DNA of 38,564 bases, from the NCBI GenBank assembly GCA_043779265.1, contig JAYWEM010000106.1, positions 1 through 38,564 on the forward strand. Reading direction: 5' to 3'. Under the pieces are notes generated by a model, which did no database searches, was not told the DNA's origin, and saw only the letters and a program-made list of their open reading frames with translations. Source of the DNA: a bacterium. GTDB lineage: Bacteria > Eisenbacteria > RBG-16-71-46. Shown one piece after another: positions 16,819 to 29,295 of the stretch (positions are counted from its first letter, which is position 1; every line of letters starts with the position of its first letter). Made by a program: the position numbers and the translations under genes.

Positions 16819-17958
16819 ATGAACCTGCATGAGTACCAAGGCAAGGAATTGTTCGCGCGCTACGGGATCCCCGTGCTGCCGGGGCAGGTCGCCGGGACGC
16901 CCGAGGAGGCGCGCGATATCGCCGCTTCGATCGGCGGACTCGTCGTCATCAAGGCGCAGGTTCAGGCGGGCGGACGTGGCAAGGCCGGTGGCGTGAAGCT
17001 GGCGAGCACGCCCGAGGAGGCGTTCGAGAAGGCCCAGGCGATCCTCACGCTGACGATCAAGGGCCTGCCGGTGCACAAGGTGCTCGTGACCCAGGCGGCT
17101 GACATCGCCAAGGAGTACTACCTCTCGATCGTGATGGACCGCGAGAAGAAGGCGCCGCTCATCATGTTCTCGACCGAAGGCGGAGTCGACATCGAGGAAG
17201 TGGCGCACTCCACCCCCGAGAAGATCGTGAAGCAGCACATCCCGCTCGACGGATTGCGGCCGTACCAGGCGCGCAACCTGATGGCGAAGGCGTTCCCCGA
17301 CTTCAAGCAGGCGCAGCAGGCAGCCGCTGTGTTGATGGGTCTCTACCGTGCGTTCATGGACGGGGACTGCACGCTGGTCGAGATCAATCCGCTGGCGGTG
17401 ACGCCCGAAGGGAAGGTCGTCGCGCTCGATGCCAAGGTCGTGCTGGATGAGAACGCCGAGTACCGGCACCGCGACTGGAAGAGCTGGCGCGACCCGGCCG
17501 AGGAGACCGCGGGCGAGCGGCTCGCCCGTGAGAAGGGGCTGTCCTACGTCAAGCTCGAGGGGGACATCGGCTGCATCGTCAACGGCGCCGGGCTGGCCAT
17601 GGCGACGATGGACCTGATCAAGCACCACGGCGGCGATCCGGCCAACTTCCTCGACATCGGCGGCTCGTCGAATCCCGAGAAGGTCACGGCGGCGCTGCGC
17701 ATCATCACCGGCGACGGCAACGTCCGCGCGATCCTGTTCAACATCTTCGGCGGGATCACGCGCTGCGATGACGTGGCCAACGGCATCGTCGCCGCGCTCA
17801 AGGAATCCCCGTTCTCGGTGCCGCTCGTGATCCGACTGACGGGCACCAACGAGGTCAAGGCCCGCGAGATCCTCGCGGCCAACGGACTGTCGGCGACGAC
17901 CAGCATGGACGAGGCGGTGCAGATGGTGATCGCTCGTGCTCAGGAGGTGACGGCGTGA
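16819..17958 (+). CDS. sucC: Succinyl-CoA synthetase beta subunit
   Basis: [57 protein letters not shown]. Confidence 0.98.
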
Positions 17959-19064
17959 GCATCCTGATCGACAAGAACACGCGTCTCATCGTGCAGGGCA
18001 TCACGGGACGTGACGGCGCCTTCCACACGCAGCAGATGGTGGCCTACGGCACGAACGTGGTGGCCGGCGTCACGCCCGGCAAGGGCGGCGAGAAGGTGCA
18101 TGGCGTGCCCGTGTTCGATTCCGTGGCCGAGGCGATCGAGGCCACGAAGGCCAACGCATCGGTCATCTACGTGCCCGCACCGTTCGCAGCCGATGCCATC
18201 CACGAGGCTGCCGATGCGGGGATCTCGCTCATCGTCTGCATCACGGAGGGGCTGCCGGTCCGCGATACGCTGACCGCATTCCACAAGGTCCTCGCGCTGC
18301 GGGGCGAGTCGAATCCGCTGGGTCGTCCGCGTCTCATCGGCCCCAACTGCCCGGGACTCATCACCCCCGGCCAGGCCAAGGTCGGCATCCTGCCCGGCCA
18401 CATCGTGACGCCCGGACCGATCGGCGTCGTCAGCAAGAGCGGTACGCTGACCTACGAGGTGGTCAAGCAGCTGACCGACCGCGGGATGGGGCAGACGACC
18501 TGCATCGGCATCGGCGGCGACCCCGTGATCGGAACCGACTTCATCGACGCCCTCAGCCTGTTCGAGGCCGATCCGAAGACCGAGGCGATCGTGCTGATGG
18601 GCGAGATCGGCGGCAACGCCGAGGAACTGGCCGCCCAATTCATCAAGCGGCATGTGAAGAAGCCGGTTGTGGCGTTCGTGGCGGGGCAGACCGCTCCTGC
18701 CGGCAAGCGCATGGGGCACGCCGGTGCGATCATCTCGGGTGGCACCGGGACGGCTGCCGAGAAGATGGCGGCGTTCGAGGCGGCTGGTGTTCCGGTCGCG
18801 CGCATCCCCTCGGAGATCCCAGGACTCATCGCCGAGCTGCTGCAGCGCCGCCGCGTCCGTCGCAAGGCGACTGCGGCCGCACCCAAGCGCAAGGCCGTGG
18901 CATCGAAGGCCAAGCCGGCTCCGGCGAAGAAGAAGGCTCCTGCCAGGAAGGTCGCCCGCAAGTCGGTCGCGGCCAGCAGGCAGGTGAAGGCGGGCAAGGC
19001 GAGTCGCACGCGCCCGGTGAGCCGCAAAGTGACGAAGAAGGCGGCGAAGAAGCGCCGCTCGTAG
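17955..19064 (+). CDS. sucD: Succinyl-CoA synthetase alpha subunit with a 73-aa Lys/Arg/Ala-rich C-terminal tail
   Basis: GTGA overlap with suc[42 protein letters not shown] (phospho-His). Confidence 0.97.
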
Positions 19065-23470: not shown

Positions 23471-24249
23471 CCGAGGTCCGCACGCAGATCGCATCCTCGC
23501 TCGATCGCGAACTCGCCGGACAGGTCGCCTTCGTCACGGGCGGCGCCACGGGAATCGGACTCGCGATCTCGCGAGTGCTGGCCTCCCGAGGCGCCAACGT
23601 CGCCATCTTCAATCGCAATCAGGAGCGCGCTGAGCAGGCGGTGCAGTCGATCCGCGACAATGGTGGGACCGCGCAGGCGTTCGCGGCCGACATCGCGCAG
23701 ACGACATCCGTCGATGCCGCCTTCGAAGCCGCGATCTCGGCGCTCGGCCGCGTCGACATCCTCATCAACAACGCCGGGCTGACACGCGACGGGCTGTTCA
23801 TGCGCATGACCGACGCGCAGTGGCAGGAAGTGCTCGACACCAACCTGACGGGCGCCTTCCGCTGCACCCGCTCCGTGGCGCGAACCATGCTCAAAGCGCG
23901 CTCGGGACGTATCGTCAATCTGTCCTCGGTCGTCGGATTGATGGGGAACGCCGGGCAGGCCAACTACGCGGCCTCCAAGGCCGGATTGATCGGTCTCACC
24001 AAGTCGCTGGCGCGTGAGTTCGCGTCGCGCTCGGTGACCGTGAACGCCGTGTGCCCCGGATTCATCGAAACGGAAATGACCGCGCAGCTGCCTGAGGCGG
24101 CGCGGAAGGAGTTGCTCGCGAAGATCCCGCTCAGTCGGCTGGGTGGCCCGGACGAAGTCGCCGAGGTGGTCGCGTTCCTCGCGTCCCCACGTGCGGCCTA
24201 CGTCACCGGTCAGACCTGGACCGTCGACGGCGGGATGGTGATGGAGTAA
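23467..24249 (+). CDS. fabG: 3-oxoacyl-ACP reductase
   Basis: ATGA overlap. TGGATGIG, NNAGLTRD, GNAGQANYAASK, PGFIETEM. Confidence 0.97.
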   Translation: MTEVRTQIASSLDRELAGQVAFVTGGATGIGLAISRVLASRGANVAIFNRNQERAEQAVQSIRDNGGTAQAFAADIAQTTSVDAAFEAAISALGRVDILINNAGLTRDGLFMRMTDAQWQEVLDTNLTGAFRCTRSVARTMLKARSGRIVNLSSVVGLMGNAGQANYAASKAGLIGLTKSLAREFASRSVTVNAVCPGFIETEMTAQLPEAARKELLAKIPLSRLGGPDEVAEVVAFLASPRAAYVTGQTWTVDGGMVME

Positions 24250-24306
24250 GTCCCTGCGTGCCGGGGCCCGCGCGGCTGCCGGTGCGGACAAGGAGGTGAA
24301 CGGAAC

Positions 24307-24549
24307 ATGGGTGCCTACAACGAAGAACGTTTCAAGGAGATCATCGCCAAGGAGCTCGAGGTTGACGTGAAGCAGGTCAACCCCGATGCCAAGTTCATGG
24401 AGGACCTCGGTGCGGACTCGCTCGATGTGGTCGAGCTGGTCATGGCCCTCGAGGAGGAGTTCGGTGTGGACATTCCCGACGAGGATGCGGACAAGCTGAA
24501 GACCGTCGGCGATGCCATGAAGTACCTGCAGGAGCACGCGAGCGCCTGA
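24307..24549 (+). CDS. acpP: Acyl carrier protein
   Basis: [33 protein letters not shown]. Confidence 0.98.
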
Positions 24550-24578
24550 GCGCGCGGACTCCGACGGCGCAGCGTCCT

Positions 24579-24617
24579 CCGCGCCGTCCGGCCCGACCGA
24601 GGGACCGGACGGCGCGG
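24579..24617 (+). other. Strong intergenic stem-loop between acpP and fabF (no U-tract)
   Basis: CCGCGCCGTCCGG-CCC-GACCGA-GGG-A-CCGGACGGCGCGG: 13-bp plus 3-bp stem. Confidence 0.6.
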
Positions 24618-24661
24618 TGCGGCCGCGCGCCGGCACTGAAGATCACGGAGATGACCGTCGA

Positions 24662-25909
24662 ATGAGTGAGACTCGAGAGCGGGTGTTCATCACGGGCGCG
24701 GGCGTTCTATCGCCGGTGGGGAACAACCTGGAAGACAGTTGGAAGAACCTGGTCGCGGGAGTCTCCGGGGCCGGGCCGATCACGCGTTTCGATGCGAGCG
24801 AGTACGACACCCGCTTCGCCTGCGAGGTGAAGGACTTCTCGTTCGAAGGCGTGCTCGAACGCAAGGAGGCGAAGCGGATGGATCGCTTCGTCCAGTTCGC
24901 CGTCGTCGCCAGCCACGAGGCTGTGAAGCACTCCGGCATCGACCTGGCCGCGACCGACCTCGACCGTTTCGGTGTGATCATCGGGTCGGGCATCGGCGGA
25001 ATGGAGACGTTCGAGGAGCAGCATCGCAACCTCCTCGAGAAGGGGCATCGACGCGTCAGCCCGTTCTTCATCCCGATGATGATCTCCGACATGGCGGCGG
25101 GACAGGTGTCGATCAGTTTCGGCCTGCGCGGCCCGAACTTCGCCACCGTTTCGGCCTGCGCCTCCGGCGCACATGCGATCGGCGAGGCGCTGCGACTCCT
25201 GCGCGCCGGCGATGCCGACGTGTTCCTTGCGGGCGGTGCCGAGGCCACGATCACGCCGATGGCCGTCTCGGGCTTCGGCAACATGCGCGCCCTCTCGACG
25301 CGCAACGATGACCCGCTTCGCGCCAGTCGGCCTTTCGATCGCACGCGCGACGGCTTCGTTGTCGGTGAGGGCGCCGGCATCGTCGTGCTGGAGACCGAGT
25401 CGCACGCCCGTCGCCGCGGAGCGACGCTGATCGCCGAACTCGTCGGCTACGGCGCGTCCGGAGACGCGTTCCACATGACGTCGCCCTGTGCCGACGGCGA
25501 TGGTGCCGCGCGTGCCATGCGGCGAGCGCTGCAGGACGGTGGGTTGGCCCCGGAGCAGATCGGCTACATCAACTCCCATGGCACCTCGACCCCGACCGGC
25601 GATCCCATCGAGGTCACGGCCGTGAAGACGGTGTTCGGCGAGCATGCGAAGCGCTTGATGATGGGCTCGACCAAGTCGATGACCGGGCATCTGCTCGGGG
25701 CTGCCGGCGGGCTCGAGGCCATCATCACGGCACTCACGCTGGAACGCGGCGTCGTTCCGCCCACGGTCCATCTGGACGAGCCGGATCCCGCCTGTGACCT
25801 CGACTTCATCCCGGGCGAGGCGCGGTCGGTGCGACTGGAGGCGGCCCTGTCGAACTCATTCGGATTCGGCGGTCACAACGTGACGCTCGCCCTGAAGGCG
25901 GTCCGATGA
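24662..25909 (+). CDS. fabF: Beta-ketoacyl-ACP synthase II
   Basis: RVFITG.G, MDRFVQF, SACASG (Cys), HGTST, KSMTGHLLGA, SNSFGFGGHN. Confidence 0.97.
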   Translation: MSETRERVFITGAGVLSPVGNNLEDSWKNLVAGVSGAGPITRFDASEYDTRFACEVKDFSFEGVLERKEAKRMDRFVQFAVVASHEAVKHSGIDLAATDLDRFGVIIGSGIGGMETFEEQHRNLLEKGHRRVSPFFIPMMISDMAAGQVSISFGLRGPNFATVSACASGAHAIGEALRLLRAGDADVFLAGGAEATITPMAVSGFGNMRALSTRNDDPLRASRPFDRTRDGFVVGEGAGIVVLETESHARRRGATLIAELVGYGASGDAFHMTSPCADGDGAARAMRRALQDGGLAPEQIGYINSHGTSTPTGDPIEVTAVKTVFGEHAKRLMMGSTKSMTGHLLGAAGGLEAIITALTLERGVVPPTVHLDEPDPACDLDFIPGEARSVRLEAALSNSFGFGGHNVTLALKAVR

Positions 25910-27441
25910 GCACACGCGCTCGCCGTCGCGGCGGGCGTGGACGCCGACGCACTCCGCATGCTGCGCCCCCGCCCCGCCCCACCTTCTGGCAGAAGGTGCT
26001 CGCGTTCTTCGGCGCGAAGCGCAAGTCGAGCGCCGGGCGGCTGAAGCGGGGCCCCGATGCGGCTGATGTCCAGGAGAGTCGCGTGTTCCGGGAGTTCTCG
26101 AATCAGTTCGGGATCCCGTTCAAGGATATCGCGCTGTTGAAGCTCGCCCTGACCCATCGCTCCTACCTGAGTGTCACCGGTCAGAGCGCGCGCGAGTCGA
26201 ACGAGCGCCTCGAGTTCCTCGGTGACTCCGTGCTGGGCCTGGTCACGAGCGAGTTCCTGTACCGGCGGCACCCGGACGAGCATGAAGGGCACCTGACCAA
26301 GGTGAAGTCCCTGCTCGTCTCCAAGGCGATCCTGTCGCGCCGCGCGCTCAAGATGGGGTTGGGGCGCTACGTCCTGATGAGTCGCAGCGAGGTCGAATCG
26401 GGCGGGCGTCAGAGGCTCAGCATCATCGCCGACGCGTTCGAATCCGTCCTCGGCGCGATCTACCTGGACCAGGGTTTCGAGGTCGCTCGCCGATTCATCC
26501 ACGAGCATCTGCTCACGGATGCGGATGACATCGTCGCGGACAAACGACACACGAACTACAAGAGCCACCTTCAGGAGTATGTGCAGAGCACGTACCGCAC
26601 GCATCCCGTCTATCGCATCCGGAGCGAGTACGGCCCGGACCACTCCAAGTACTTCATGGTCGAGGTCATGGTCGGCCGCCGCATGCTGGGCGAGGGCCGT
26701 GGCCACAACAAGAAGGAAGCCGAACAGGCCGCGGCGCGCGACGCCATCGAGCGCGTGACCGAGCTCCGCCGCGGAGCCAGCGAAGGACGCCGGGACGAGC
26801 ACGACCCTGTCGAGGAGCGCGAGCCCGAGGATCTCGACGACTCACCACCGTCTCCTTCTGAGGAGGACGAGCATGAGTCGGGTGATGACTCGCGAGGCAG
26901 CCGGCGCAGACGTGGCGGCCGTGGTCGCTCGCGGCGCGAACGCGGCTCGGAGCGTCATGGAAGTGGCGCTGGACGCGGTGACGAGGAGGCTGAGTGCGAG
27001 CTCGAACTGGCCGAGGAGGCGGAGGCTCGCGGCGAAGTCCCCGTCGAGCCTTCGGCTCGCGAGGACGATGAGCACGAGCCGGTGGCTCGGCCTGACGACC
27101 CGGACGCCGAACTGGATGAGCCGGTCGAGGGGTTCGTGGCGCGGCGGAGGCCCGAGGCCGAGGAGCCTGCGATCATGGCGTTGCCCGCTCGATCGTTCGG
27201 GCGCGGTCGTCGCGCCGGGCGAACCGCGGCCCCGACTCAGGCCCCCGAGCCCTCGGCGGCCGAGGAGGAGCGCCACGTCGACCCCTTCGCCCTTGCCGAG
27301 GTCGCAGCGGAAGCAGCCAGCGAACCCGCCGAGCCTGCCGAGAGAGATGCTGACAAGGAGGCGCTCATCGATGAGATGGAGCGCGCCATGGAGAACTTCG
27401 GCAGGCGCTCGAGTTCGACGCGGAGACGACGCAGCCGCTGA
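25906..27441 (+). CDS. rnc: Ribonuclease III with an N-terminal Arg-rich/amphipathic extension and a ~225-aa charged low-complexity C-terminal tail
   Basis: ATGA overlap with fabF. ALTHRS, NERLEFLGDSVL, ADAFESVLGAIYLDQG; dsRBD NYKSHLQE...KKEAEQAAA. Confidence 0.93.
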   Translation: MSTRARRRGGRGRRRTPHAAPPPRPTFWQKVLAFFGAKRKSSAGRLKRGPDAADVQESRVFREFSNQFGIPFKDIALLKLALTHRSYLSVTGQSARESNERLEFLGDSVLGLVTSEFLYRRHPDEHEGHLTKVKSLLVSKAILSRRALKMGLGRYVLMSRSEVESGGRQRLSIIADAFESVLGAIYLDQGFEVARRFIHEHLLTDADDIVADKRHTNYKSHLQEYVQSTYRTHPVYRIRSEYGPDHSKYFMVEVMVGRRMLGEGRGHNKKEAEQAAARDAIERVTELRRGASEGRRDEHDPVEEREPEDLDDSPPSPSEEDEHESGDDSRGSRRRRGGRGRSRRERGSERHGSGAGRGDEEAECELELAEEAEARGEVPVEPSAREDDEHEPVARPDDPDAELDEPVEGFVARRRPEAEEPAIMALPARSFGRGRRAGRTAAPTQAPEPSAAEEERHVDPFALAEVAAEAASEPAEPAERDADKEALIDEMERAMENFGRRSSSTRRRRSR

Positions 27442-27485
27442 GCGGCTCTCCGAGCGAGTCCGCCTCGGAGCAGGCGTCTCGGCAT

Positions 27486-27667
27486 AAGCAGAACGGGGGA
27501 CCGTTTCCGGTCCCCCGCTCGCAAGCTGCCGCCACATACGATCAGGACATGGCCCCTCGGAACTTTCCTTGCCCTTTCACATAGTGGCGACAGTCCGATA
27601 GCGCCCGAAGGCGCGTCATGATCATCGTCACGTCAGTCCGATACGTCTTCTGCATCATCCCGACAGG
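27486..27667 (-). ncRNA. Putative sigma54-dependent structured small RNA (~180 nt)
   Basis: Bounded by a -24/-12 promoter (27678-27694) and a GAAA-capped hairpin (27491-27520). Contains a cUUCGg hairpin (27601-27614) and a long stem (27584-27593 with 27526-27535). Ends approximate. Confidence 0.55.
27491..27520 (-). terminator. Terminator-like hairpin between rnc and the minus-strand transcript
   Basis: Minus strand GAGCGGGGGACCG-GAAA-CGGTCCCCCGTTC followed by TGCTTAT (weak U-tract). Confidence 0.65.
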
Positions 27668-27677
27668 CAAACACCTC

Positions 27678-27694
27678 TGCATGTGGTGTGCCAG
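27678..27694 (-). promoter_or_regulatory. sigma54 (-24/-12) promoter
   Basis: Minus strand CTGGCACACCACATGCA = TGGCAC-N5-ATGCA with exact GG-N10-GC spacing (consensus TGGCAC-N5-TTGC). Confidence 0.7.
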
Positions 27695-27894
27695 TCCGAG
27701 TGGCGTGCCCGGTTTTCAGTTCGAACGTTGCGATATAACGCTTTAGCGATGTCCACGCATGTGAAGCATGGATTCGTGGTCAGATCCATCCGGACAAGAT
27801 GTCCGCTTCGATCGAGTCGTTGCGATTACGCCATGTCGCAACTGCAAGCAGTCGTTGAAATTAGCTGCGGTGGACGCATCGACTGGCGCAAAGG

Positions 27895-29295
27895 TCAGAA
27901 TGTCCCATCTGCAGGCTCATCCGACGAGACCTCGGCCGCGAAACGTTGGAGCGTCTTGCGCGAGATGCCGAGGACCTTGGCCGCCTCGCTCTGGTTGCCC
28001 TTCGCGTGCTCGAGCACGCGTCGGATGTAGCGGTCGCGCCAGATCTTGAGCGTCGGCAGCTCGGCGTCCTCGATCGACGGACTCGCGGTGCCGAGGTCGG
28101 AGGGCGACCCCACCAGGCGCAGCATCTCGGTCGTCACGGCGCCTGCGCCGGAACTGGCGAGCTGCGCGGCGCGCTGCATGACGTTCTCCAATTCCCGGAC
28201 ATTGCCCTTCCAACGGTGCACAAGGAGGGCTTCCATCGCCGATGGAGCGATGCGCGGGGGGATCTCGCGCCCGAGGCGGCGCGAGTAACGCGCCAGGAAG
28301 AACCTCGCGAGGCTGGGGATGTCCCCCTGCCGCTCCCGCAGCGGGGGCAGCGTGATCTCGACGACCGCGACGCGGAAGAAGAGGTCCTCGCGGAATGTCC
28401 GGTCGACGACCATCTGGCGGAGGTTGCGGTTCGTTGCGCAGATCAGGCGCACATCGACCGGGATCTCCTCGTTGGCTCCGACGCGCTTGACGCGCTGTTC
28501 CTGGAGCACGCGTAGCAGCTTGGCCTGCACGGGCAGCTCGAGTTCGCCGATCTCGTCGAGGAAGAGGCTCCCGCCCGAGGCCTGCTCGAACAAGCCGACG
28601 CGATCCTGCTGGGCCCCCGTAAAGGCGCCACGCATATGCCCGAACAGCTCGCTCTCGGCGAGCCCGCGTACGATCGAGGCGACATTGGAGACGACGAACG
28701 GCATCGCCTTTCGAGCACTCTGCTCGTGGATCATGCGCGCCACGAGTTCCTTACCGGTGCCATTCTCACCCAGCACCAGCGCACTCGCGTCGCCTCTCGC
28801 GTAACGGCTGACATCCTTGAACGTCTGCAGCATCGCCTTCGAGCTGCCGACGATCTCACGGAGGCCGTGAGTGGCGACCTCGCTCGGATCGGGCCAGTCG
28901 ATCTCCTCCTCGGGTTCGCGCATCACCCGGTGTGCTTCGATGGCCTGTTTCAGCAGCAGTCCGAGTTCGATGCGGTCGACTGGCTTGCTGAGGTAGTCGT
29001 AGGCACCTTTCGTCATCGCGCTCATGGCATCGGGGATGTTGGCGTCCCCGGTGATCAGCACGACCGGGACGTCGCCTCGACGCTCACGAAGTCGACTCAA
29101 CAGGTCGAAACCGCCCAGGCCCCGCATCTTGACGTCCGAGAGCACCACATCGAAGTGGCGCTGATCGAACTTCTCGAGCGCTTCCTCGACGCTATGGGCC
29201 TCGTCGGTCAGGTGACCGAACGTGCGCGTCATGGCGGCAAGCGCACGGGCGACGATCTCCTGATCATCGACCACGAGTACCGAGGTGGAGGGCAT
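27895..29295 (-). CDS. NtrC-family sigma54-dependent response regulator (REC-AAA+-Fis HTH)
   Basis: VLVVDDQ, VVLSDVKM, GAYDYLSKP, GENGTGKE, ESELFGH..GAFTGA, FLDEIGE, FREDLFFR, WKGNVRELEN, GNQSEAAKVLGISRKTL. Start placed at ATG 29295. Confidence 0.96.
   Translation of the reverse strand: MPSTSVLVVDDQEIVARALAAMTRTFGHLTDEAHSVEEALEKFDQRHFDVVLSDVKMRGLGGFDLLSRLRERRGDVPVVLITGDANIPDAMSAMTKGAYDYLSKPVDRIELGLLLKQAIEAHRVMREPEEEIDWPDPSEVATHGLREIVGSSKAMLQTFKDVSRYARGDASALVLGENGTGKELVARMIHEQSARKAMPFVVSNVASIVRGLAESELFGHMRGAFTGAQQDRVGLFEQASGGSLFLDEIGELELPVQAKLLRVLQEQRVKRVGANEEIPVDVRLICATNRNLRQMVVDRTFREDLFFRVAVVEITLPPLRERQGDIPSLARFFLARYSRRLGREIPPRIAPSAMEALLVHRWKGNVRELENVMQRAAQLASSGAGAVTTEMLRLVGSPSDLGTASPSIEDAELPTLKIWRDRYIRRVLEHAKGNQSEAAKVLGISRKTLQRFAAEVSSDEPADGTF

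Follow-up and report, generated by a model that had tools for sequence, protein, structure and literature searches.

A conserved, tailed and helix-bearing RNase III in a branch of Eisenbacteria, possibly tethered to the membrane

Why should a bacterial RNase III carry a predicted amphipathic helix in front of its catalytic core and a 217-residue charged tail behind it? The question is raised by the rnc gene of a bacterium of the Eisenbacteria lineage (GenBank assembly GCA_043779265.1, contig JAYWEM010000106.1, positions 1 to 38,564 of the forward strand; this whole stretch of 38,564 nucleotides is referred to here as the window). An earlier note on this DNA, made from its letters alone, had proposed that the protein adds RNase E-like appendages to an RNase III and may scaffold a membrane-bound machine for RNA decay. 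The site at which RNA is cut in bacteria is known for the machines built on RNase E, RNase Y and RNase J, and reports on RNase III conflict (PMC8708148).

Comparison with relatives indicates that this tailed, helix-bearing RNase III is a real, conserved and, apparently, unpublished variant of a known enzyme, the function of which we infer. The reading that we put forward, tentatively and with slightly less than even confidence, is that of an RNase III tethered to the membrane, its charged tail taking up RNA and clustering with further enzymes of RNA decay. A literature search that reached few subscription papers brought up none describing a bacterial RNase III with such a tail or helix.

The RNase III core and its tail

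Translation reproduced the 511-residue open reading frame (ORF) at 25906-27441 with all the motifs that had been quoted for it. Its core and tail comprise the following features:

25906..27441, + strand: rnc, 511-residue RNase III with N-terminal extension and C-terminal tail (ORF translation, Pfam, NCBIfam)
26128..26520, + strand: RNase III catalytic domain with E103, D107, D176 and E179 (PF14622, E 3.5e-37)
26557..26751, + strand: dsRBD, the domain that binds double-stranded RNA (PF00035, E 3e-15)
26788..27438, + strand: tail of 217 residues, predicted to be disordered, in which acidic blocks and Arg/Gly blocks occur (pLDDT below 50; blockiness z 4.2)
26902..26928, + strand: tail Arg/Gly block RRRRGGRGR (pattern in 30/40 family tails)
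27265..27288, + strand: EERHVDPF, a conserved short stretch left over from the longer acidic EEVGRPEGPLEERHVDP motif of the family (30/40 tails have a pattern of the DP[FY] type)
27367..27399, + strand: sub-clade helix IDEMERAMENF (13/40 tails; model helix 481-496)
27397..27438, + strand: terminal [FYW]GR[RK] and Arg-rich end, candidate partner- or RNA-binding motif (40/40 tails; 113/120 database homologues)

Pfam places the RNase III domain at residues 75-205 and the dsRBD at 218-282, and the NCBIfam RNase III equivalog TIGR02191 scores 247.7 bits against a cut-off of 166.25. Residues E103, D107, D176 and E179, which are invariant among 21 aligned family sequences and align to the solved RNase III 1o0w, are the four acidic catalytic residues. 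As judged from its sequence, the window protein is a class-1 bacterial RNase III, with one RNase III domain followed by one dsRBD and with intact catalytic residues; Drosha- and Dicer-type enzymes are defined by two tandem RNase III domains, and Pfam finds one here. The catalytic domain of RNase E/G (PF10150) has no Pfam match in the 511 residues, and the RNase E/G of this genome is encoded by a separate gene. The rnc gene of the window is the sole RNase III match in its genome, and its closest named relatives belong to Candidatus Eisenbacteria.

Relatives were compared in the family to which the window belongs (f1; 43 rnc loci, 40 complete genes) and in a related sister family (f3; five complete genes), which together form one group in a quick unrooted tree of RNase III cores (Shimodaira-Hasegawa-like approximate likelihood ratio test, SH-aLRT, 99). 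Further samples were other Eisenbacteria (26 loci, of which L166, L168 and L179 were unparsed); a phylum containing genome G134 (a Kapaibacterium), which we take as Bacteroidota; and a control from outside the Fibrobacterota-Chlorobiota-Bacteroidota (FCB) group, mostly Lachnospiraceae and Clostridia and hence narrow.

Tail length, counted as the residues after the KKEAEQ motif of the dsRBD, is 207-376 in all 40 complete f1 genes and 374-442 in all five complete f3 genes, compared to 12-92 in 21 other Eisenbacteria (measured automatically), 11-42 in 24 of the 30 Bacteroidota loci and 11-35 in 36 of the 37 non-FCB loci. The exception outside the two families is L175 (family f10), with a tail of 194 residues that contains the same Arg/Gly block. 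On the sequences sampled, the long tail is confined to the two related families f1 and f3. Shorter tails, of 79-194 residues (79-84 in two f10 genes other than L175), occur in L175, L178 and L182 of family f10; they share the RRRRRRGGRGRR block, end in a PWAASRL motif and may perhaps have been gained independently or earlier.

No Pfam or NCBIfam family matches in the tail. In the AlphaFold2 model, the core is folded over residues 50-294, an isolated helix spans residues 27-35 (block predicted local distance difference test score, pLDDT, 75), and pLDDT is below 50 across nearly all of residues 299-511, except for a helix at 481-496; the tail is thereby predicted to be disordered, as had been proposed, and its charge is patterned, with a blockiness of z = 4.2 compared to shuffled sequences and values above 2 in 30 of the 40 f1 tails. 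The segment DPFALAEVAA fared less well, having been described as a helical island: only three of its residues are helical in the model, and only the HVDPF part is conserved.

Conservation of the tail motifs in orthologues, which the earlier note had named as a check, is evident in f1. The terminal [FYW]GR[RK] motif is present in 40 of 40 tails, the Arg/Gly block and DP[FY] in 30 each, E[VIL]GRP[ED] in 26 (the window lacks it) and IxE[MI]ExA in 13 (the window has it), compared to shuffle means below 0.3 for each, a contrast that is overstated insofar as the patterns were written after viewing the alignment and the relatives are not independent. The order of the motifs is kept among the tails. 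Among 120 database homologues, 114 have a tail of at least 100 residues and 113 the terminal motif. These counts also bear on an artefact, that is, a missed stop, a frameshift or a wrong start in a metagenome assembly. The sequence was indeed assembled from a metagenome, and the rnc gene of one relative (L188, G079:C103) reads TGA, in frame, at a position between helix and catalytic domain that is Cys in its relatives, which reflects either an assembly error or a pseudogene. However, the same architecture recurs in 45 complete genes and in the 114 database homologues, and three close homologues begin with the same M-x-x-R-A-R-R-R head as the window protein, so that an artefact has next to no chance of being the explanation. 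A frame error, missed stop or read-through as the source of the tail is excluded, given that all 40 complete family genes carry the tail in frame and end it with the same motif.

Alternatively, the tail might be low-complexity coding sequence that has built up, for the most part neutrally, in a GC-rich lineage, its motifs being of little consequence to an RNase III of plain function. The spread of tail lengths (207-442), tandem repeats in several tails, a tail codon score near zero and an N-terminal extension that demonstrably derives from recruited fabF and intergenic sequence (see below) are all compatible with this explanation. Yet the tail has been lost in none of the 45 complete genes, and the motif order and the terminal motif are kept. 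Moreover, long low-order stretches are rare in the genome, with 13 of 2685 genes (called by a crude script of our own, used for all such genome comparisons here) containing one of at least 100 residues; the window tail is the third longest and has the highest charge fraction among the 45 low-order stretches listed. We consider neutral accretion quite improbable.

The acidic motif of the family tail, of 39 residues, is well conserved in f1 and mostly lost in the sub-clade of the window. It was found on RNase III tails only, in 17 genomes and always at rnc, apart from one weak match (E 0.006); among 1.84 billion representative sequences it has 60 matches, 56 of which end in the same terminal motif, and no other Pfam family is present in the 23 acidic-motif proteins scanned. 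A tail motif borrowed from another protein was sought in the genome and representative-sequence searches, and none was found; a search of the ESM Atlas gave only leads under 0.9, including RhlB and PNPase_C clusters.

The amphipathic helix and a probable start codon inside fabF

The N-terminal extension and the gene in front of it contribute four features:

25921..25950, + strand: N-terminal Arg/Gly block RRRGGRGRRR (R7, G9 and R11 invariant in 21 aligned sequences)
25981..26013, + strand: amphipathic helix TFWQKVLAFFG, predicted membrane anchor (model helix 27-35, hydrophobic moment, conservation)
24617..25909, + strand: fabF, beta-ketoacyl-ACP synthase II, whose TGA stop overlaps the rnc ATG as ATGA (ORF list, Pfam)
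25792..25797, + strand: site of the family's internal rnc start in fabF; here CTG, then an in-frame TGA (locus alignment)

With a hydrophobic moment of 0.56 and a mean hydrophobicity of 0.90, TFWQKVLAFFG ranks in the top 2.1% of the 11-mers of its genome. The helix is credible because it is conserved across families rather than on account of the window alone. When a fixed threshold was applied to 11-mers of each extension (moment of at least 0.55 and hydrophobicity of at least 0.4; L188 and L213 excluded), it was passed by 39 of the 42 f1 extensions (shuffle mean 1.6; random N-termini of the genome 5.0), by 7 of 7 in f3 (0.3 and 0.8, respectively) and by 21 of the 29 in Bacteroidota (2.4 and 2.0). 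The other Eisenbacteria mostly show such a helix directly after the start; 8 of 22 pass the strict test, which was lowered in part by start-trimming errors, and 21 of 23 pass a laxer test that has no null. In non-FCB RNase III the extension is nearly absent, only 3 of the 36 reaching 11 residues, and the one gene that passes, L107, does so because it was misparsed where its contig ends.

By these comparisons the helix, conserved in relatives as had been anticipated, is an FCB-wide trait that is older than the tail, and the caveat attached to the original proposal, that short N-terminal amphipathic extensions may be common in FCB RNase III, holds. An acidic residue is present in just 4 of 47 helices, and the flanks have a median net charge of +4; in helix swaps of RNase E, basic flanks and few acidic residues are required for membrane binding (PMC13657362). 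No paper on an N-terminal amphipathic helix of Bacteroidota RNase III was found in a search of article texts; membrane-proteome tables for Bacteroidota could bear on the helix. A helix of membrane-anchor type on the RNase III of most sampled Bacteroidota makes the question of location testable in culturable species. Most of the sampled Bacteroidota genes concerned (L206-L235) adjoin fabF.

In the window, too, rnc follows a fatty-acid operon (yceD, plsX, fabH, fabD, fabG, acpP and fabF, named from their Pfam matches), and in the two families its start appears to lie inside the last of these genes. An open, in-frame ATG is found within fabF 112-118 nucleotides upstream in 42 of 43 f1 loci and 118-127 nucleotides upstream in 7 of 7 f3 loci, compared to 1 of 20 loci in other Eisenbacteria, all 20 of which have an rnc start after the fabF stop. 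The fabF stop is in the same register in all 43 f1 loci, and an ATG, GTG or TTG between that stop and the helix was scored in only nine. The codon before a conserved Cys ends in A in 42 of the 43 loci, across seven amino acids, whereas at other places in fabF 2-35% of the codons for these amino acids have a final A (Gln 28/204, Thr 39/735, Ala 119/1722). Because this A is kept at 42 of 43 loci and is rare elsewhere in the gene, the upstream ATG was preferred, and a non-canonical GTA or CTA start and a frameshift fusion at the fabF stop were rejected. Most likely, then, the first 38 or so residues of the relatives' RNase III are overprinted on fabF; the Arg/Gly head, we infer, was recruited from what had lain before the former start. 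The rnc start buried in fabF is a well-supported example of two genes overlapping at length on the same strand, whereby a new segment of protein arose.

The genome of the window is the exception: the ATG internal to fabF has been lost (CTG TGA), and an ATG overlapping the fabF stop is present instead, for which reason the coordinates given earlier for rnc are right for this genome. In database annotation, only 11 of 120 homologues begin at the ATG internal to fabF, gene callers often missing that start.

RNA-decay enzymes and the proposed role

We envisage an ordinary class-1 core held at the inner membrane by the predicted amphipathic anchor. The helix would probably insert into the membrane, with two copies per RNase III dimer giving avidity. 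There is about an even chance that RNA is bound by the Arg/Gly blocks and that clustering is favoured by the blocky charge, along with the Arg-rich ends which PNPase and a second Rho have gained in this lineage; blocky charge is needed for, and drives, the bacterial ribonucleoprotein bodies (BR-bodies) of Caulobacter (10.1101/272286). More doubtfully, the conserved short motifs might dock on a protein partner, for which PNPase is the best candidate. Double-stranded RNA would then be cut at the membrane and the fragments handed to nearby exonucleases, RNase III being a member of such foci and not necessarily their organiser.

For RNA decay, the window genome encodes an RNase G-like protein of about 516 residues that lacks a tail, an RNase Y whose N-terminus includes a hydrophobic stretch, DEAD-box helicases of short length, PNPase and two Rho proteins. 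PNPase and one Rho carry extensions of their own in this lineage. PNPase has a Gly/Arg/Asp tail of 38-50 residues ending in RRR in 19 of 19 complete f1 genes, and in f1 only, compared to 12-19 residues in 9 of 9 outsiders (loci L254-L274, of which one gene was cut and one unparsed; the copy of the window genome is G000:C111:12423-14468, L163). A second Rho that lacks the N-terminal domains spans the same range as the long RNase III tail, being encoded in 25 of 25 f1 and 8 of 10 f3 genomes and in none of 6 others; in the 11 loci that were read, one of which appears to be frameshifted, its head is Arg-rich and disordered (window genome copy G000:C125:7891-8739, L161); Rho types of such architecture have already been described (PMC11347177). 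The gain of charged disordered regions on three RNA enzymes would suit a shared RNA-protein compartment no less than a single scaffold, and is weak evidence.

PNPase was chosen for folding with the tail because cyanobacterial RNase E binds it through a terminal Arg-rich nonapeptide, RRRRRRSSA (PMC3964918, PMC10989914). Prediction of a complex between the PNPase core of the window genome and the last 87 residues of the tail gave a score of 0.53, compared to 0.01 for the best of three controls; the runs agree in at least 3% of contacts, with a partner pLDDT of at least 33, and one of the three runs scored 0.00. The mark applied to such predictions was reached by 116 of 157 solved pairs and by 2 of 215 mismatched pairs, and at scores up to 0.60 by 18 solved pairs and both mismatches. 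The prediction lends weak support to a PNPase-tail complex and moves the odds little.

A stronger role, much as originally proposed, would make RNase III a dedicated membrane degradosome scaffold, with tail motifs that recruit PNPase, RNase G and a helicase as the C-terminal half of RNase E does. RNase E, RNase Y and RNase J have such an organising role in degradosomes or condensates, and RNase III is not known to have one; if the role were real, the tailed enzyme would be a fourth kind of scaffold for bacterial RNA-decay bodies. It occurs in lineages whose RNase E is tail-less: of 30 RNase E/G genes read, the 28 complete ones all stop 90-102 residues beyond the Zn-link. RNase J was not found in any of 41 genomes. 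In f3, RNase Y was likewise not found above the cut-off in any of ten genomes (G026, G028 and G030-G037; 0 of 5 in a second search), which leaves no known degradosome scaffold there. The terminal Arg-rich motif recalls the cyanobacterial nonapeptide, and the PNPase-tail prediction points weakly the same way.

Against a dedicated scaffold, RNase E/G is just as short in three f2 genomes and one f5 genome, whose RNase III lacks the long tail, so that substitution of the RNase III tail for a lost RNase E tail is not supported. RNase Y is present in the window genome, in 23 of 24 other f1 genomes and in 6 of 6 outsiders. The sets of tail motifs vary between sub-clades and families while PNPase remains 59-83% identical, and the nonapeptide requires its SSA end (PMC3964918), which is not conserved in the RNase III tails. 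The idea of an RNase E-like scaffold survives in part: helix and tail are conserved, the tail is predicted to be disordered and is blocky, and RNase E/G is tail-less, but the helix predates the tail, RNase Y is present and the f3 tails are charge-mixed. We regard a dedicated scaffold as unlikely, and take a similarly sceptical view of the broadest claim, that RNase III is the membrane-anchored organiser of an RNA degradosome or condensate in this branch and is membrane-bound throughout the FCB group via an unrecognised helix. The notion that RNase R, as a partner of the tail, had been lost was likewise rejected; RNase R was not found in the window genome but is present in 24 of 24 family genomes, and the absence of RNase R/II from the window genome is probably an assembly gap.

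Several observations weigh against even the more modest role of a membrane-tethered member of RNA-decay foci. [quoted passage not shown] The moment of the window helix is equalled by 197 of 2000 shuffles of residues 1-56, so that it is modest evidence alone. As to the tail, the post hoc choice of patterns and the kinship of the sequences inflate the motif contrasts, 10 of the 40 f1 tails are not blocky, and all five f3 tails are charge-mixed (z -2.1 to -4.3), sharing with f1 just a [FYW]GR motif; the f3 tails have an RYRxAE motif of their own (5 of 5). Co-occurrence of the RNase III, PNPase and Rho extensions is weak evidence because each gain is one evolutionary event. Finally, a pass at the score level of the PNPase-tail prediction is rated more often wrong than right unless the complex was likely beforehand.

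The appendages could instead regulate the enzyme itself: the helix would pack against the dimer or a soluble partner, and the acidic motif would mimic RNA and hold activity down until it is displaced. The conservation of the 39-residue motif and its restriction to RNase III tails fit such a role, as does the report from imaging that E. coli RNase III is diffuse (PMC8708148). However, folding of the acidic motif on the core was seen in neither AlphaFold2 model (block pLDDT 44-55 in the relative L018; below 50 in the window protein), the helix is placed outside the fold on a linker of variable length in both alignment and models, and the sub-clade of the window has lost most of the motif. Self-regulation therefore seems improbable to us, and tethering at the membrane, with RNA binding and clustering by the tail, remains the reading that we favour.

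A convergent RNA, and likeness to known systems

Downstream of rnc, two features lie on the opposite strand:

27471..27599, - strand: conserved structured RNA, convergent with rnc, with a hairpin at 27526-27593 and a terminator-like hairpin at 27494-27517 (comparative folding)
27679..27693, - strand: sigma-54-type promoter motif before the convergent RNA (15/15 RNA-bearing genomes)

The RNA lies at most 700 nucleotides from the rnc stop in 23 of 41 f1 loci, and in 0 of 5 f3 and 0 of 17 other loci; because its distribution does not follow the tail motifs, it is treated separately from the RNase III protein. It is predicted to fold into a long hairpin of irregular shape, in which CGAGGGGCC is invariant, and then into the terminator-like hairpin, and the minus strand folds better (z -6.9 vs. 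-3.9). Of 35 pairs, 18 are changed on both sides, a number reached by 0 of 500 shuffles and compared to 3-12 in slid controls, the structure itself having come from this alignment. With a model based on 23 copies, the RNA was found in 15 of 41 genomes, all of them f1 and two of them new (loci L285-L299). The sigma-54-type motif of these 15 genomes compares with 0.002 expected per 190 nucleotides, and the gene for an NtrC-type regulator lies just upstream of the RNA in 13 of the 15 (27895-29295 in the window). There was no Rfam family match, and a pattern scan of metagenome contigs gave no exact match. The layout is like that of Pxr (PMC10217877) and GlmY (PMC3045617, PMC6075780), and a new sigma-54-dependent small RNA of this kind is likely, on comparative grounds. 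It is speculative that the hairpin, or an overlap of the RNA with read-through from rnc, serves RNase III as a substrate.

A scan of 24200-28100 for sigma-70 promoters and terminators found none. Elsewhere in the window, the succinyl-CoA ligase alpha subunit encoded at 17955-19064 has a histone-like, Lys/Ala/Arg-rich C-terminal tail of about 80 residues.

The nearest known enzyme is class-1 RNase III (Rnc; TIGR02191; structures 1o0w, 2a11 and 7r97), which has the same single catalytic domain and dsRBD, the ERLEFLGD motif and the four acidic residues. Compared to it, the window protein has about 50 extra N-terminal residues (about 90 in relatives) that include the helix, and the 217-residue tail; solved bacterial RNase III chains have 170-252 residues. 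The accessible part of a review of RNase III makes no mention of a degradosome, an extension, disorder or Bacteroides, and calls the localisation of the E. coli enzyme contradictory (PMC8708148). Drosha, likewise of the RNase III family, has Pro-rich and Arg/Ser-rich N-terminal regions for localisation and substrate targeting (PMC8708148), but it is eukaryotic and has two RNase III domains, whereas the window protein has one and its long region is C-terminal.

The membrane-targeting sequence of MinD is a short basic amphipathic helix ending in LFG(G), printed as KGFLKRLFGG (PMC5471200), and f3 helices such as KGFMGWLKRLFG show a near-identical pattern; the likeness is compositional only, and the helix is internal or N-terminal in RNase III and C-terminal in MinD. 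Atypical Rho proteins of types 2 and 2d are, likewise, housekeeping RNA enzymes with a lineage-specific charged disordered region, and phase separation was shown for the Rho of B. thetaiotaomicron (PMC11347177). Rho is a different enzyme and has no membrane helix. A second Rho of this sort is found alongside the long tail here.

The closest analogue of the appendages is the C-terminal half of RNase E, as in the membrane degradosomes of E. coli and Pseudomonas, the BR-bodies of Caulobacter and the cyanobacterial C4 motif, with which the window protein shares an amphipathic helix, Arg-rich blocks and an Arg-rich terminus, blocky charge and short conserved motifs in a region predicted to be disordered (PMC13657362, 10.1101/272286, PMC3964918). 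The window protein has neither the catalytic domain of RNase E nor sequence homology to it, its helix precedes the nuclease and predates the tail, and the likeness, known here from sequence, is one of analogy.

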